A stretch of DNA of 47,442 nucleotides. It comes from a virus (lineage: Duplodnaviria > Heunggongvirae > Uroviricota > Caudoviricetes). The stretch covers positions 1 through 47,442 of the IMG/VR virus record IMGVR_UViG_2913112809_000004; one strand, written 5' to 3'. Shown piece by piece: positions 24,001 through 30,000 of this stretch; positions within the stretch are counted from its first letter, which is position 1, and each line of letters opens with the position of its first letter. The position numbers are program-made.

Positions 24001-27000
24001 CGGCAAATTTCCGCGTCGCGAAACTGGTAGCGATATTCACCAGCATCACCGTTTTACCCCAGCGACGACCACAGCATACCGCGTGGAAGCGTTCCTCTAT
24101 TGCCGCCGTCCATGCAGCTATTTGCCCCTCATGAGGTTTTGGGAGGTAGATTTCAATCGACATTATTCACTCCCGGCATCGGCAGAGAGTTGTGGATAAT
24201 TATTTCGTTATTCTCACCACCCACGCCTTTTTTGAGGTTTTCAATCTCAGTGCGCAGCTTTTCATTGCGAAGCCTCAGTCCTTCAAGCTCCAGATCATTG
24301 CGACTGTCAGTTGCACCACCAGCAGAACTTCCTTTCGTCGCCATTATCAGCTTGATAAGTTCGCGCCGGGCGGCAGCCTTATCCTCCAGCAGGATCTCAA
24401 CACCAAATTTCCCGAGCTTTGCCCCTGCATATAATTGCCTCGCATCCCCATCAAGCAGAGTGGTATCAGCCATATAAAGCTGTCCTGTTCCCTCACCGCA
24501 GCACTTCGGGCAGTCCGGATTGGGTATGGCGTTATCAACAAAGCCAAGGCCTCCATATTCCGGTTCGAGTTTGCCATCTCTGGAAGCCTGCGCCGCTGCC
24601 TTATCGAATTCTGCTATATCGCGCCACTGGTAGTGATGATTCTCGCCCCAGCAATAACGGCAGTTAACACGGCGAAATTGTGCCAACTGATTGGGGTCGG
24701 CCTGGACAATGGCCATCAACTGACTCACCAGTAAATCCAGGTCTGCGGTATAGCGTTTCTGGTACTGATTGCGGAACCATGAGATAGCCCGATAAACCTT
24801 AGGATTTCTTAGGAGCTGGCTGGCAGTTACGTAGGCCGCATTCCCCTCTGACTCGTATCCTGCCAGGCGATATGCCTCAACGAGTTTTCTCCCCTGTGCA
24901 ACCAGCATCGCAAATTTCGTCTGCTGCTCTGAGATGCCGAATTCATCGGGATTGAATAAAATTTCCTGATCATTTCCTGCAACGGGAGAAACAACCACTC
25001 TGGATTTTTCCTTCCCCGTTTTGCCGGTTCGCTTTTGCGCAGTTTTCTTTTGCGCATCTTTTTGCGCAGTTTTGCGCACTTCTGCCTGCGCATTTTTCGG
25101 AGGTTTTTTGATGTAACGACGGGCTGTTGCGTAATTCAGTCCCCTTGCTTCACACCATGCCACCGGAGATATACCGGAGCGGGTGTATTCAGCAATATAC
25201 TCCTGCTGCAACGCCCCCCAGTCCGGTCTGCTCATCAGTTAGTCCTGATTTTTATCCACCCTGAGTAGTTCGCGCAGAGCAAAGGCATCCCCTTTTCTGG
25301 CAAGCTTAAACAATGCCGCCCGTAACTCGGCTTCACCTTTCGCTCTGCCCTTACGGATGGACGCATAAAAATTTGTCATTGCTTCCCGATTTTCTTTCAG
25401 TCGATTCAGATCAACATCCAGAACGTCAGCGATTTGTTGTGCAGTCATCCGGCACGCTGCCAGAGACTCGACTTTCGAATACGGAATCATTTGTCACCCC
25501 CATTGATATGCAGGGTGTCTTCTTCCTGTATTTTTCGTGAAGAATTTTTACTGCAGCGTTGTTCCAGGTGACCTGGTGGTGAATGCGTTTATGGCTGGCG
25601 CCCATCAGTGAGATTTTTACGCACGACGGTGCATACATGACGGAGTAAAAACTTTTAACGTAGGTTCCGGAATCCAGATACAGCTCGGTCATTCCGCCAC
25701 TGTTTTTCTGCGTCTGTTTCTGCCCTAACTGGACAGCACCGATCGTCATAAACAATTCTCCACGGCGACCGAGATTCGTGTACGTATTCACATCCTCGTT
25801 AATGCGTCCCATGAATGAGAACGGTCGGTCAACCGAACAGATAAAGCTGTTCATTGCCTTACGTTTCACCCATGAAGCATGAGCGCCATTGTCACCAAGA
25901 AAATCCCCGCCCTGCGACATAGCGATGGAAAGCGCGGGTATTGATTCGTAATACGCCAGCATTTCAGAAAGGATCGCATCCAGTTTCCTTATCGGAAAAT
26001 AGGCCTGGTCATAGTTGCGATCCACCCGAAACTGGAACTCGTGATAATCATCATCGAGCTGAATGAAGTATTTACACCCGACCATTTTTGCCAGGTCGAA
26101 ACAGGCATTACGGGCGTAAAAAATTGAACGGCGGTCACCGAGATTATCGGCTTCGTCAAAACGACTGGCGATATCGGCTTTGGAAAACACCAGCACCTGT
26201 TCACCAAATTCAGCTACGTACTGATGCCAGGTCTTGTCTTCATCATCGACAATGATAAAAATTTTCCCGGTATAGCCAGCACGACGCAACGTCCGGTAAG
26301 TCAGAACTTTGTCCGGTCGCCCGTGAGTCAGAATAAAGGCGCAAAAATCATCACGCACATTCATCCTCCTCCCCGCCATGCATGATCTCCACCATACGCT
26401 GCGTCATCCGGACAAATCCATTTTCAATAGCCTGCTGATAATCAATGATCACCAGCGCCGACTCCTCGAAAAGACACTGAATTTCAGCGGGGGCGTGAGC
26501 GTAATAGTCCGCAATTCTGCTGAAATTAAACACCGTGTGACGTTCTGCCGCACACAGGAGGAATTTCTCAATATCAGGATCAAGGGGCGCCGAACGTATC
26601 CGGTTGATCAGCTCCTGAGTTTTCGTATCGTCGTACAGTTCACTGATATCCGGTTTACCGCCCGATGGCTCATAAACAGGCGTATCAATTTTCGTCGTAT
26701 ACGGCTCATCCTCATTTCCTGTACCTGGCAAAACATCCGTCAACAGCTCATCAATTTCTGTCGGGCTGAAGCCTGTCAGGGAGACATCAAAATCAGCATT
26801 GATTAACTCCGACAGCTCCATCCGTAACAGTTCTTCATCCCAGCCAGCGTTCAGTGGCAAGCGATTATCTGCCAGGCGATACGCCTTTTTTTGGTCATCC
26901 GTCAGACCAGACAAAACAATGACCGGAACGGAATCCATTTTGAGCACTTCAGCCGCCATAACGCGACCGTGACCCGCAATAATTTCGCCCTTTTCATCAA

Positions 27001-30000
27001 TCAGCACCGGATTAGTCCAGCCGAATTGCTTAATGCTTTCTACCAGTTGTGCCACCTGCTCAGGGCTGTGTGTCCTGGCATTGTGTGCATACGGAGACAG
27101 TTCTTGTAACGGGCGATAGACGATCTTCAATTTCTCGCTCATACAGCCTCGCTTGATGAATAAAAAAGCTCGCCAACAGCCAGTGCGCTGGGTGCGCGGC
27201 GGGTGCTGTTGGTGAACCATGGCATTATAACAGCCCCTCACTAAAGAGCTGTTATAATGCTGATGTGTGGTTACAACATTAATATTTTCAATGCTATATA
27301 TCCGCTTATATTCGTCCCCTTCAATAATAACATTCACACAATCAGCACTTCATAAGCTCATAGAAATAAAAATGCCCCACTCTGGGGCAATAAAACAAAA
27401 AACAACTTAATTATTCCGCATCTAATTCTATAGCCCATATATGATTCGGACTATATGCTTCGCTTGCGCATAAATTCACTTTCATATCTGAAAGTATAGC
27501 AGCCATTGCAATTTTCCTCATTTCATCAGCGACATAATTATCCGGATAGTTTTGCGCCCCAGGAATAATCCAAACACCGCCAGTTGAACTGACAACATAT
27601 ATACCTTTCCTATTAACATTTGCGTCAGCAAAATATTGAGTCAATTTGACTCCCTCTACAATTCTGGCTGTGGTTCCTCCACAGTTAGTTCTAAACTCCT
27701 GGCTAACACCTGCAAATGTTTGGATAGATACCAAACTTATCATAAAAACAAAAATTTTAATCAATGCCTTAAAGTTCATCTTTATCTCCATTCTTTACCA
27801 GAAAATCATCAATACTTTGCAAAGTCAACAAAGTGGATTTGCGTTTTATGAACTTCTTAAATTTTAATAAATCAGCTTGCGATAGTTCATTAGTGATAAA
27901 ATCACAGGTTAAAAAACTATTAGTTTTATTATTTTGATGGCATTGATCTGGCGCAAACTCTATCCAAGGGTACTCTCTCCAGGCTGGGAATTCATCAGGG
28001 AATCCCGCAAGATGATACCCATCTTCATTCGGTGCAACAGATAATCCACGAAATAAATCTCTTCGATAATTTCTGTTTCTGTGCATCCCCCCCTCTATCG
28101 CACCAAAAGTTACTCTATACCATCCAATTATTTGTGATAATGGAACACCACCTAATGCTGCATACTCATTTTCACTTGGGTATGGGCTGTATGTACCGAG
28201 TATGCCGTTCACATCAAATAAATTAGGCGCTGGTGCAATGACATAAATATAATACTCGTTAAAGCTCCCAAGCATATTTTGCCCGATCAAATGAGCCTGT
28301 CTTAATGTCGTTGTTGTAGATACATAACCATCATTATATCTGGTATTCCCTGTTACAGTTCCTCGGGCGTGATCATATAAATTAATATTGATTGGCGTAC
28401 CACGTTCATACGCTTCATCTTGTCCTCGGGGTATTAACCCACCAGAACGTCTCACTTCATCTGGTGATCTGGAGTCTGCTCTATAAAAATCATTAGCATA
28501 AGACGTAGAAGATATGAAAACCAAGGTGACAAACCAAAAAACAATTCTATTCATGATACTTATTGTGCGCTCTGAACTATGTACAATGACATTAACGCAT
28601 CTGCAAAACAGATAATTGATGCAAATCAATAAATAGAATTAATCAAAAACATAAGACATATATAATTTATCCTGAGATTATAATTTCAGCTATTACGCAA
28701 ATTTTTTATTTAATTTTGTAATTTCCAACTAAAGTATAAATATCAACAATTGATTCCTGATACGCGCTCTTTAATCCAGCCATATACAAACGACTCGTTA
28801 GCCTCCCGTTTCTCTGCCAGCTCCAGGTAACGGTCACCCTGCGTACAGTTCAGTGCGGTCAGCATTACCCGTTCGCCATCCCTGCCACGATTTTTCAGAT
28901 ATGCCCGTAACGCATTAATAGTTCGTGGGCCGATACGTCCGTCTGCATCCATATCCGGATACAGTTTCCCGCGCAGGTTGAAAACGTTCAGCCAGCGTTG
29001 AAACATTTTTGACGCCACGGTTGGCCCCATGTTGACGCCTGTGTCGCACAGCTCTGCGGCAATATCCGGGGACAAATTTGCCACCTGGTCAAAACGTGGG
29101 CCGTACCAGTAATCCGCCTCGAGTATTTCCAGCGCCTGCCCGCGCGTCAGGTCACGCATATCGCCCTGATATCCGTGCGCCCGGGCGACTTTTTCAGTAA
29201 TGCCCCATTTGGTCGGACCACCTTTATCATCCGGATGGTTGACGTAACCGCCCTCTTTTCCCAGAACTTCGTCAAAAATTTCATCTTTCGACTTCATTTC
29301 AGTACCTTCGTAATGCAAGGATTTTTGAAACATTCCCACGTGCACGTATCACCAGCACGCAGAACAGCAGATTAAAAAACACCACCAGCCAGTTCGCCGC
29401 TAACAGACGACCACACAGATAGCTGAGTGGCGCAAGGGCATAAAGCAGCATCAGCAGCCAAGCCAGCCATGACATCAGCGGTTTATGTCTGGAATCATGA
29501 CGACGATAAAAAAAAAAGCGTCAACACGATAACCGTGCATAACGCTACATTCAGCAATCCAGAAAGGTTATCAGGCATTGCCGCCTCCCCCACCCCGCAG
29601 GCGGGAGAACAGGCCGGACACCAGTGATGCGATATCCTGCTGGTGGATGAACGACAGAATCTTCACCGACACCACTGACACCAGCACTGCACACAATGCG
29701 TCGACAGGCGCTCCGTCAAACCCTGTATGCTTTACCAGCCAGGATGCCAGAACCTCTGCACCCAGCACGCCGATAATGAACGACACCAGAAAATGCGCCG
29801 CCACACGCCAGGCTGAAAGCGCCTGCGGTATCGTTGCCACAAATAACGCCCCGGCGAACGCACCAAACACAATCCCGAAATCCGTTCCGGTAAACAGCCC
29901 GAATACCGTCGCCCCGCCGAGCGCCGCAGCCGTGCCGGAACCGGATAAGGGTTCAGACATACTTTTTCTCCTGTAAATAAAAAAGGCCACCAGCGGCCCG

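Follow-up and report, generated by a model that had tools for sequence, protein, structure and literature searches.

Glycosyltransferases of the TAGT (TET-associated glycosyltransferase) family include enzymes that add sugars to phage DNA. The beta-glucosyl-HMC-alpha-glucosyltransferases of T2 and T6 are characterised members whose substrate is DNA (PMC13216743, PMC13390438), and the GT-A enzymes associated with 5mYOX in metaviromes are most like the base J glucosyltransferase of trypanosomes (bioRxiv 10.1101/2023.12.21.572611). The known DNA-directed members use 5hmC, 5hmU or glucosyl-5hmC provided by a co-encoded hydroxymethylase, TET or alpha/beta-GT. Solitary TAGT homologues, with no alpha-GT or beta-GT, have also been described in 288 of 753 phage genomes and were called surprising and potentially novel transferases (NAR 2026, PMC13216743). 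In eukaryotes, the family member GREB1, a large cytoplasmic protein that shares a Pfam domain with an E. coli glycosyltransferase, has no ParB partner and O-GlcNAcylates a protein, ER-alpha (PMC7968844).

Two known ParB-like proteins offer precedents, each helping a DNA-modifying enzyme. ParB176 is a phage protein with an N-terminal nucleotide-binding domain, conserved NTP-motif residues and a C-terminal domain, but no HTH; it is required by 5mYOX176 on double-stranded DNA, and its gene adjoins that of this post-replicative DNA-modifying enzyme, often near glycosyltransferase and terminase genes (O'Toole et al., PNAS 2026, PMC13229309). DpdB is an NTPase of the ParB fold whose C-terminal domain is helical, and it bears a DGQQR motif as well as a basic DNA tunnel; it aids the separate base-modifying enzyme DpdA in a bacterial restriction-modification-like 7-deazaguanine system (PMC10164549).

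We analysed a stretch of 47,442 nucleotides (the window) from an E. coli prophage that carries a toxin gene. Just before its DNA-packaging genes lies a ParB-like gene followed by a TAGT gene (Table 1). The pair resembles the ParB176 system in architecture, in setting and in the retention of conserved NTP-motif residues; however, ParB is coupled here to a glycosyltransferase rather than a dioxygenase, and its C-terminal domain also occurs alone, without ParB-N. It likewise recalls DpdB-DpdA, but the partner is acidic, phage-encoded and paired with a glycosyltransferase.

Table 1. Positions in the window of the two-gene cassette, its domains and motifs, and the adjoining packaging genes.
Feature	Position	Strand	Remarks
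ParB-like partner gene (YnaK-type), 263 aa	26351..27142	-	ORF call; ATG 27142, stop 26353-26351 included
ParB/Srx N-terminal domain (NTP-binding fold), residues 1-140	26723..27142	-	matches to N-termini of ParB-methylase fusions
C-terminal TAGT-partner domain, residues 141-263	26354..26722	-	no Pfam family, no known fold
Linear motif Y148-[T/S]149-x-K-I-x-x-P155-x-Y157-E-P159	26666..26701	-	invariant; segment predicted disordered
Coupling junction	26351..26372	-	SD, ATG 26364, GTG 26358, ParB stop TGA 26353-26351
TAGT-family GT-A glycosyltransferase gene	25426..26364	-	312 aa (ATG 26364) or 310 aa (GTG 26358)
DxD-type catalytic motif D104-D105-D106 (in QLDDDY)	26047..26055	-	invariant in 20 homologues
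Clade-specific C-terminal extension of the glycosyltransferase, residues 225-285	25510..25692	-	conserved; outside the Pfam TAGT model
Packaging context	22835..25490	-	PHROG 309, PHROG 51; ORFs; RefSeq annotation of relatives
83-aa TerS-like ORF	25490..25239	-	downstream of the glycosyltransferase gene
TerS	25235..24153	-	
TerL	24163..22835	-	followed by portal

The original prediction of a ParB-like protein lacking its usual methylase was borne out: neither a Pfam methyltransferase domain nor a [DNS]PP[YFW] or FxGxG motif was found in the partner. Motif searching of the translated ORF located NARTHSPEQVAQLVESIKQFGWTNPVLID at residue 21 and IIAGHGR at residue 54, Pfam ParB_N scored 28.5 bits over residues 23-88, above its cut-off of 26.3 (E=1.6e-6), and PHROG 620 matched residues 1-250 (E=3.5e-89). 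Close relatives are labelled 'ynaK: ParB/Srx family N-terminal domain-containing protein' in RefSeq. The N-terminal domain is homologous to that of the ParB-N::N6/N4 DNA methyltransferase fusions (PHROG 498, E=2.4e-51; PADLOC MTase_II, E=7e-38), proteins of lambdoid and other prophages that are likewise encoded in the late operon before terminase; here the methylase is absent, its place being taken by the C-terminal partner domain and, as a separate protein, a glycosyltransferase. Across 29 TAGT-linked partners, N21, G57 and N93 are kept in all and R60 in 28, and the catalytic glutamate of the GERR motif has become histidine (H58) in 24.

The segment behind the ParB domain had been taken for about 150 featureless residues. 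It is closer to 120 residues, and it is a conserved domain, previously undescribed, of ~115-120 aa that is found either fused to ParB-N or as a standalone protein of ~130 aa. Within its linear motif, Y148, [TS]149, P155 and Y157 are kept in 32/32 sequences of one alignment and 40/40 of another, the two having five sequences in common. When the isolated domain was modelled, pLDDT fell below 50 at residues 140-153. Many phages encode this domain alone with the TAGT enzyme, so the ParB N-domain is dispensable there, and the constant partner of this TAGT clade is the C-terminal domain, not the ParB domain. The idea that a ParB module was re-paired with a sugar-transferring enzyme is thus fair as regards the ancestry of the N-domain, but the universal partner is the C-terminal domain.

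The second gene was correctly read as a GT-A glycosyltransferase. The signatures FILTHGRP, IFIIVDDED and QLDDDY occur in that order at residues 10, 35 and 102, and no transmembrane segment is present (Kyte-Doolittle(19) maximum 1.08), which points to a soluble protein. A profile search placed it in Pfam TAGT (PF20691; E=6.9e-36), the TET/JBP-associated family that had been named for comparison; RefSeq and UniRef call the E. coli protein 'GREB1-related protein'. Besides the DDD motif, R16, D40, D43, D70, E71, D73, N74, R78, E190 and D191 are invariant in the 20 homologues compared (identity down to 58%), so that all family-invariant residues of the predicted catalytic site are intact. The DDD motif matches the R...DDD...ED[Y/F] GT-A motif of phage DNA glycosyltransferases (bioRxiv 10.1101/2023.12.21.572611). 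PF20691, the GT-A fold and R...DDD...ED are shared with the T2/T6, 5mYOX-associated and base J enzymes, and a soluble, phage-encoded nature with the TAGT-family DNA glycosyltransferases generally; identity to the TAGTs of T4-like phages (Aeromonas phages 65 and Ah1) is ~23-25%. In contrast to the known TAGTs, this clade has no hydroxymethylase, TET or alpha/beta-GT partners; its enzymes carry an additional conserved stretch of ~60 aa at the C-terminus, and a small partner domain is obligate. The extension (invariant M225, T226, L228, Y229, G233, T234, Y235, K237, F239, Y240, P246, R260, H262, H263, W267 and K281) lies within a PHROG 31222 match to residues 201-282 (E=6.8e-45). The monomer model gives it a pLDDT below 50, and we propose that it may fold against the partner protein. 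The solitary TAGT homologues reported earlier are probably the same gene set, although the partner, the coupling and the packaging or replication position are absent from that account (PMC13216743).

The arrangement of the two genes marks them as a translationally coupled cassette. A Shine-Dalgarno sequence, GGAGGAGG (26372-26365), lies 6 nt 5' of GTG 26358. The proposed 14-nt overlap holds if translation starts at ATG 26364, but family N-termini (MRDDF...) and RefSeq (310 aa) favour the GTG, which shortens it to 8 nt. The coupling itself was upheld: of 131 related loci, 113 have an upstream gene whose stop overlaps the inferred start of TAGT, most often by 8 nt (82 loci) or 11 nt (25 loci). 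The pair is also conserved as neighbours, as had been anticipated. Among 53 genome loci from different species, 51 have a partner homologue directly upstream of the TAGT homologue, the remaining two being cut off by a contig end or truncated, and the TAGT gene directly follows the partner domain in 74 of the best 80 viral loci. This adjacency is far beyond chance, and the identity of TAGT co-varies with that of the C-terminal domain (r=0.83). Among the exceptions, four loci (L132, L133, L135 and L140) have one extra gene in between, and in L143 the TAGT gene lies ~0.8 kb after the partner domain. In L123, whose contig is 9 kb long, the inserted gene and the partner form a single fusion, and the contig yielded no confirmed TAGT ORF.

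The cassette is portable among unrelated phages and turns up in those of nearly all bacterial phyla and of haloarchaea. At ~50% identity it spans Proteobacteria, Bacteroidota, Firmicutes, Actinobacteria, Chlorobi, Saccharibacteria and a haloarchaeal virus, and phages that are virulent or large and lytic (c5, 191-kb Vibrio phages) carry it too. In temperate phages it adjoins TerS/TerL of four Pfam types (Terminase_6N at 21 loci, Terminase_3 at 11, GpA at 3 and TerL_ATPase at 1), and in Lactobacillus phage c5 it forms the first two genes past cos. Larger phages have the order DnaB-primase-PolA-(TAGT2)-CTD-TAGT-(cytidylyltransferase)-beta-clamp; other copies lie beside dUTPase and RecA, or beside N6/N4 DNA methylases. 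On the coding strand of the window, the interval from the LT-II terminator to the start of the ParB gene yielded no sigma70-like promoter prediction, which argues for late expression. Travel with at least four unrelated terminase families and inside replication modules makes a specific packaging or virion protein, one of the targets first suggested, an unlikely acceptor.

Portability of this kind argues for a universal acceptor such as DNA. We therefore lean, with confidence just short of an even chance, towards a self-contained, late-expressed and adaptor-dependent glycosyltransferase acting on phage DNA. The partner and the TAGT enzyme would assemble as a complex, the C-terminal domain with its Y-[T/S]-x-K...P-x-Y segment docking on the TAGT, probably on the clade-specific extension. 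The ParB N-domain, gated by NTP, would load the enzyme onto double-stranded DNA or keep it there, a role modelled on ParB176 (thymine dioxygenase) and on DpdB (for DpdA). The complex would use a nucleotide-sugar of the host to glycosylate phage DNA at a late stage of infection, shortly before packaging or while it proceeds; in the larger lytic phages, the missing N-domain and the position between DNA polymerase and sliding clamp suggest coupling to replication instead. If this is correct, the sugar would shield virion DNA from the nucleases of the next host. Support for such a function comes from the DNA-directed TAGT relatives, the two ParB-like helpers, the obligate pairing, the packaging, replication and DNA-methylase settings and the homology of the N-domain to ParB-methylase fusions. 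Glycan-building accessories found beside the cassette or fused to it fit as well: a second TAGT, SAM-methyltransferases, a sulfotransferase, and genes for sugar-nucleotide enzymes or cytidylyltransferases. Against it stand the protein target of GREB1, the H58 substitution, the lack of a recognisable DNA-binding domain in the partner and its strong acidity (pI 4.1-5.2 and net charge -12 to -34 in the ParB-fused forms).

The chemistry is a further difficulty. The original remark that the window shows no hydroxymethylase or other base-modifying partner was borne out: the window yielded no gene for TET/JBP, for a thymidylate-synthase-like hydroxymethylase or for any other base modification, and the same held for the complete genomes of phages c5 (50 ORFs) and phi jlb1 (54 genes) and for all Pfam-annotated cassette neighbourhoods. 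Canonical DNA offers no hydroxyl to an O-glycosyltransferase, which leaves the DNA chemistry without an explanation. Since the cassette is not accompanied by a hydroxylase or hydroxymethylase, the acceptor is probably not a phage-made 5-hydroxymethyl-pyrimidine. Nor did the literature that could be searched contain an account of modified DNA in a phage with the cassette.

The main rival, which we consider rather unlikely, is that the partner is itself O-glycosylated at Y148-[T/S]149 or Y157, in the manner of glycogenin or GREB1, and that the sugar-bearing acidic protein is what functions, perhaps as a decoy for nucleases or restriction or as a carrier of a glycan. The C-terminal domain is the only constant companion of the enzyme, its most invariant residues bear hydroxyls in a segment predicted to be disordered, and an acceptor inside the cassette would account for portability equally well. 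The partner's acidity resembles that of the DNA-mimic anti-restriction proteins, which are acidic. GREB1 shows that a TAGT-family enzyme can O-GlcNAcylate a protein (PMC7968844). However, self-glycosylation leaves the ParB NTP-binding domain and the DNA polymerase/clamp or DNA-methylase settings without a rationale; the donor-synthesis enzyme fused to the partner in L123 fits a scaffold better than a substrate, and DNA is the target of all characterised phage TAGT/GT-A relatives.

A classical TAGT role, on 5hmC or 5hmU of a superinfecting phage (exclusion) or, following an unrecognised hydroxylase, on DNA of the phage itself, appears improbable. Family membership speaks for it, Pyle et al. raise the possibility that prophage glycosyltransferases hypermodify invading genomes, and a divergent enzyme could lie among several neighbouring ORFs without a Pfam match. 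Yet virulent and large lytic phages carry the cassette too, in the window it belongs to the late operon and no separate promoter was predicted for it, no candidate hydroxylase was found in the two complete small genomes, and a gene for excluding particular rival phages would not be expected to keep ~50% identity over phyla.

There is similarly little probability, in our view, that the acceptor is a non-DNA nucleic acid or small molecule, such as a tRNA base (queuosine, as an escape from anticodon nucleases), a nucleotide second messenger or, by hydrolysis, the UDP-sugar pool. Portability requires a universal acceptor, and bacterial tRNA, in contrast to canonical DNA, has hydroxylated bases. 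The ParB/Srx fold is also that of phosphotransferases acting on small molecules or proteins, SerK and Srx among them (PMC12704722). None of the neighbourhoods examined, however, is tied to tRNA or signalling genes, and the packaging, replication and DNA-methylase links favour DNA.

Conversion of the cell envelope by a TarP-like soluble prophage GT-A enzyme acting on teichoic acid or LPS precursors, with serotype change or a superinfection block as the outcome, recalls CDP-polyol pathways through the cytidylyltransferase-like genes of some cassettes but is very improbable, since the highly conserved pair spans Gram-negative, Gram-positive, CPR and haloarchaeal hosts with unrelated envelopes, occurs in lytic phages, lies in a late operon rather than showing lysogenic-conversion-type expression, and would leave the ParB/C-terminal-domain partner without explanation.

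Both genes are encoded on the minus strand, within a lambdoid, Rac-like prophage. On the 5′ side of the pair come the lysis genes and then LT-II enterotoxin A and B, which have a terminator of their own; on its 3′ side follow, in order, an 83-aa TerS-like ORF, TerS, TerL, and the portal gene. The stop codon of the ParB-like partner gene overlaps the start of the glycosyltransferase (GT) gene, by 14 nt when counted from ATG 26364 and by 8 nt when counted from GTG 26358, and a GGAGGAGG Shine-Dalgarno sequence is found 6 nt before the latter. The overlap described in the original prediction is therefore present, but its extent of 14 nt is probably an overestimate, as the family N-termini (MRDDF...) and the 310-aa RefSeq model favor the GTG start. 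The small ORF that follows overlaps the 3′ end of the GT gene by 65 nt. The E. coli GTs bear a C-terminal extension of ~24 aa that is absent in other genera, and one of the two overlapping frames may thus be spurious.

Coordinates of the ParB-GT pair and of other features in the window
Feature	Position	Strand	Product	Matches and motifs
ParB/Srx partner ORF	27142..26351	-	263 aa	Pfam ParB_N, residues 23-88
GT ORF	26364 (ATG) or 26358 (GTG) to 25426	-	312 aa (ATG) or 310 aa (GTG)	FILTHGRP, IFIIVDDED, QLDDDY at residues 10, 35, 102 (312-aa numbering)
ORF between GT and TerS	25239-25490	-	83 aa	Only the mid-part of TerS PHROG 309 (positions 145-218 of 319)
Type II heat-labile enterotoxin operon, complete, between lysis genes and ParB gene	27411-28629	-		
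LT-II A subunit gene	28629..27769	-		PDB 1tii_A, E=6e-116
LT-II B subunit gene	27791..27411	-		LT-IIb/IIa B chains, ~1e-37
Strong intrinsic terminator after the LT-II operon	27373-27389	-		
tRNA-Thr(tgt) and tRNA-Gly(tcc), between Q-like antiterminator and lysis cassette	31710-31863	-		
Q-like antiterminator	32185-32856			DUF1133
Three overlapping genes	34802-36958	+	365, 142, and 234 aa	No Pfam match; otherwise only unknown-function PHROGs 12777, 11490, and 9664

To the Pfam family TAGT (TET/JBP-associated glycosyltransferase, PF20691), the GT matched with 124.5 bits (cut-off 27.5; E=6.9e-36; residues 10-224, profile positions 4-205 of 205). This end-to-end match is to the family that the original prediction had named for comparison, and it places the 312-aa protein among the glycosyltransferases, where a placement outside them had been named as a result that would overturn the prediction. 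A match to PHROG 842 was also obtained (E=4.9e-100), and residues 1-220 are confident in an AF2 model. In an alignment of homologs, residues R16, D104-D106, E190, and D191 are invariant, as are many others. The six named residues correspond to an R...DDD...ED motif that has been described for phage DNA GT-A enzymes (bioRxiv 10.1101/2023.12.21.572611); position 192 of the GT is a valine, as opposed to the Tyr or Phe that ends the R...DDD...ED[Y/F] form of this active-site motif. Sequence, fold, and motif all make the GT a member of the TAGT family, with its active-site residues intact. The ORF contains no hydrophobic stretch, in agreement with the claim that it lacks a transmembrane segment. 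A sequence search of the PDB gave zero matches, even at E<=10, NCBIfam gave no useful match for the GT or its partner, and the GT matched none of the defense-system models of PADLOC. In RefSeq and UniRef, the E. coli GT is named "GREB1-related protein."

The partner consists of a ParB N-domain and a C-terminal domain (CTD). Over residues 3-141, the partner shows homology to the N-domain that phage ParB-methylase fusions carry (PHROG 498, E=2.4e-51; PADLOC MTase_II, E=7e-38, a match confined to the N-terminus of the PADLOC model), the ParB_N score is 28.5 bits (cut-off 26.3), and the N-domain aligns with the Spo0J/ParB structures 1vz0, 4umk, and 6sdk. Among 29 TAGT-linked partners, the nucleotide-binding residues, with the GxxR arginine and the box III asparagine among them, are kept (N21, G57, and N93 in 29/29; R60 in 28/29). 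The catalytic glutamate of the GERR motif for CTP hydrolysis is not: the partner motif reads G-H-G-R, with His in 24/29 and Glu in 1/29. As predicted, the ORF carries no methylase. It has no MTase Pfam match and no DPPY or FxGxG motif, the PHROG 498 match ends at residue 141 and, unlike the PHROG 498 fusions, the partner is devoid of C-terminal N6/N4 methylase motifs I and IV. We also considered a partition ParB of the ParABS type (TIGR00180) and rejected it, as the score of 36.8 bits is below the cut-off of 58.45 and the match is limited to residues 11-94, there is neither an HTH nor a parA gene, and the neighbors are the LT-II toxin and the TAGT. Although it has the ParB N-fold, the partner thus belongs with neither the partition ParBs nor the ParB-methylases.

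The most conserved stretch of the partner lies in the CTD, at residues ~146-255. It opens with Y148-[T/S]149-x-K-I-x-x-P-x-Y157-E-P, of which Y148, [T/S]149, P155, and Y157 are conserved in all sequences of two alignments (32 and 40 sequences, five in common), and continues as a helical domain (AAxRHxVFNY..IADYYAH..Q.LME.SALVIID). The CTD gave no fold match. A profile search with the CTD matched 4188 database proteins, and the best 120 of these are nearly all stand-alone proteins of ~130 aa without Pfam annotation. Strong acidity (pI 4.1-5.2) is a feature of the ParB-fused partners.

To survey the pair across genomes, a degenerate-pattern scan with one genome per species was used and yielded 53 loci from Proteobacteria, Bacteroidota, Firmicutes, Chlorobi, Desulfobacterota, Acidobacteriota, Actinobacteria, and Saccharibacteria, whose TAGTs are 42-97% identical. 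A partner homolog ends at the TAGT start in 51/53 loci, the other two being cut by a contig end or truncated; in several loci (L030, L034, L046, and L054), the partner is a CTD-only ORF of 131-134 aa. Searching IMG/VR with the CTD returned at least 590 loci, and the TAGT is directly 3′ of the CTD in 74 of the best 80. Four of the six exceptions have the TAGT after one inserted histidine-phosphatase/cytidylyltransferase gene, in a fifth (L143) it is located ~0.8 kb further downstream, and the sixth (L123) has the extra gene fused to the ParB partner, with no TAGT ORF confirmed in its 9-kb contig. The two genes are therefore conserved neighbors, as the original prediction required. The stop of the upstream gene overlaps the inferred TAGT start in 113/131 loci (8 nt in 82, 11 nt in 25), and the identities of TAGT and partner co-vary (r=0.83). 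The pair is a two-protein unit whose genes are translationally coupled and portable; its GT-A active site is intact, and its partner domain is obligate.

Cultured viruses with the pair include the Lactobacillus delbrueckii phages c5, LL-Ku, and phiLdb, L. gasseri phage phi jlb1, Nocardia phage NTR1, 191-kb Vibrio phages, and the haloarchaeal virus HHTV-2. The 2.2-kb pair region (window 25200-27400) matched 1568 of 5426 complete E. coli genomes, and at least 80% of it is covered in 865 of these, E. coli W included. The cassette often decays in cryptic prophages: among E. coli and Shigella, some genomes have a frameshifted or split partner next to an intact GT (L001:6123-6914; L008:9246-9981), and in E. 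coli K-12 only an N-terminal remnant of ynaK is left.

In temperate phages, the cassette stands immediately before TerS and TerL, and in phage c5 the pair forms ORF1 and ORF2, directly after the cos site. Within three ORFs downstream of the TAGT, the 53 loci encode terminases of the types Terminase_6N (21), Terminase_3 (11), GpA (3), and TerL_ATPase (1). In larger phages, a stand-alone CTD and a TAGT are found within the replisome cluster, arranged as DnaB-primase-PolA-(second TAGT)-CTD-TAGT-(cytidylyltransferase)-beta clamp, or adjoin dUTPase and RecA, or N6/N4 DNA methylases. Since the cassette moves among four terminase families and into replication modules, we rejected the reading that the GT glycosylates one specific virion or packaging protein, a role the original prediction had offered.

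Several loci carry accessory genes. A histidine-phosphatase and cytidylyltransferase-like gene lies between partner and TAGT at L132:2942-3892, L133:10326-11318, L135:5676-6659, and L140:1419-2384, L123:6739-8418 encodes ParB_N-CTD-HisPhos-CTP_transf as a single protein of 560 aa, and at L148:11242-11985 a cytidylyltransferase-like gene is directly 3′ of the TAGT. These genes probably make a special activated donor. Proteins of the TAGT clade are also found fused to a SAM-methyltransferase, Sulfotransfer_2, or a second TAGT (P0251, P0252, P0284, P0276, P0266, and P0267), which suggests methylated, sulfated, or di-saccharide products. Together with cassette neighbors that make nucleotide-sugars, the fusions indicate that a decorated glycan is built.

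Phage DNA glycosylation is understood to proceed in two steps, in which a hydroxymethyl (or hydroxy) pyrimidine is made and a sugar is then added. The cassette GT lacks this contextual hallmark of the TAGT family, an associated supplier of hydroxymethyl-pyrimidine. No TET/JBP, hydroxymethylase, or DNA methylase was found in the window, confirming the absence of a hydroxymethylase that had been noted from inspection, and no TET/JBP or hydroxymethylase was found in the complete genomes of phages c5 and phi jlb1 or in any Pfam-annotated cassette neighborhood. Among the most frequent 25 of 37 and 25 of 44 flanking-ORF Pfam families of the 53 loci, there was no TET/JBP/5mYOX, dCMP/dUMP hydroxymethylase, or alpha/beta-GT. 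For the PolA phages, base replacement of the Z-genome or hmU type was rejected, as no PurZ or thymidylate-synthase-like Pfam match occurs within +/-8-10 kb.

Because the cassette moves among phages with unrelated packaging and replication proteins, at ~50% identity across phyla, its acceptor would be either universal or carried inside the cassette, which leaves DNA and the partner itself as candidates. We tentatively favor DNA, and with it a late-acting, adaptor-dependent DNA glycosyltransferase, a reading to which we give somewhat less than an even chance and in which the ParB N-domain would serve as an NTP-gated loader of the GT in temperate phages. Several points argue for DNA: the cassette is placed beside genes for packaging, polymerase, clamp, and DNA methylases, its N-domain is homologous to that of ParB-methylase fusions, and characterized TAGTs have DNA substrates. 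Two experimental cases in which a ParB-fold protein assists a DNA-modifying enzyme argue the same way: the thymine dioxygenase 5mYOX176 needs ParB176 on dsDNA (PMC13229309), and DpdA needs DpdB for 7-deazaguanine modification (PMC10164549). Like ParB176, the partner is composed of an NBD and a CTD, has no DNA-binding domain, and is encoded beside its presumed client enzyme; in contrast to that system, the presumed client here is a glycosyltransferase, and the searches turned up no dioxygenase.

The DNA reading is weakest in its chemistry, as canonical DNA lacks a hydroxyl handle; the acidity of the partner is a further difficulty. A modification not described before, in which a GT made DNA-competent by a new adaptor domain of ~110 aa would glycosylate a canonical position directly, with no prior hydroxymethylation, is unlikely in our estimate; candidate positions are an exocyclic base amine and a terminal or backbone oxygen. 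If true, the prophages that introduce this mark would be present in roughly one sixth to one quarter of sequenced E. coli, and phages of haloarchaea and of most bacterial phyla would make it too.

The main rival, which we also hold to be unlikely, is that the GT adds its sugar to the partner itself, at the invariant Tyr/Thr/Tyr motif. Protein glycosylation has precedents in GREB1 and glycogenin, and a cassette-borne acceptor fits the portability of the pair; the genomic placement and the ParB-fold precedents lead us to prefer a DNA glycosyltransferase. Action on foreign hydroxymethylated DNA is improbable, and so, to the same degree, is action on tRNA or small molecules. Glycosylation of envelope polymers is very improbable, and GtrB- or TarP-like seroconversion was rejected on host range, late operon position, and the presence of the partner.

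Iyer et al. reportedly defined TAGT in 2013 and suggested ParB as the factor that guides modification enzymes during packaging. The searchable literature contains no description of a TAGT-specific partner domain or of a TET-less ParB-TAGT cassette, the latter of which Iyer et al. may mention. Pyle et al. found that 65% of GT-A contigs are without a first-step enzyme (bioRxiv 10.1101/2023.12.21.572611), and a T4 paper reported solitary TAGTs in 288/753 phage genomes (PMC13216743); both left this unexplained. ParB-dependent dioxygenases have recently been demonstrated (PMC13229309). The cassette is not surprising in kind, but it recasts an acknowledged orphan-TAGT puzzle as an experiment on two defined genes in ordinary E. 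coli. A large and very conserved share of "orphan" TAGTs is not alone: it is locked to a specific partner domain, to which a ParB NTP-binding module is often joined, and it stands among packaging or replication genes. This provides a concrete two-protein unit for expression and assay, which everyday strains carry, E. coli W among them. Both possible outcomes would be new, a DNA modification without a hydroxymethyl handle or a phage system in which the adaptor protein is itself glycosylated, and the cassette adds to a growing view of ParB-fold proteins as general helpers of enzymes that modify DNA.

Elsewhere in the window, the complete LT-II operon identifies the element as an LT-II-converting Rac-like prophage. 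The three overlapping plus-strand genes are opposite in strand to the surrounding early and nin genes and look like a moron or a candidate defense island; the 234-aa protein has a weak PADLOC match to the candidate family PDC-S54 (E=0.002). In a closely related prophage (L001:10458-11894, NZ_OZ501623.1), RefSeq labels the gene at the portal position "anti-CBASS protein Acb1 family protein," which is odd at that place.
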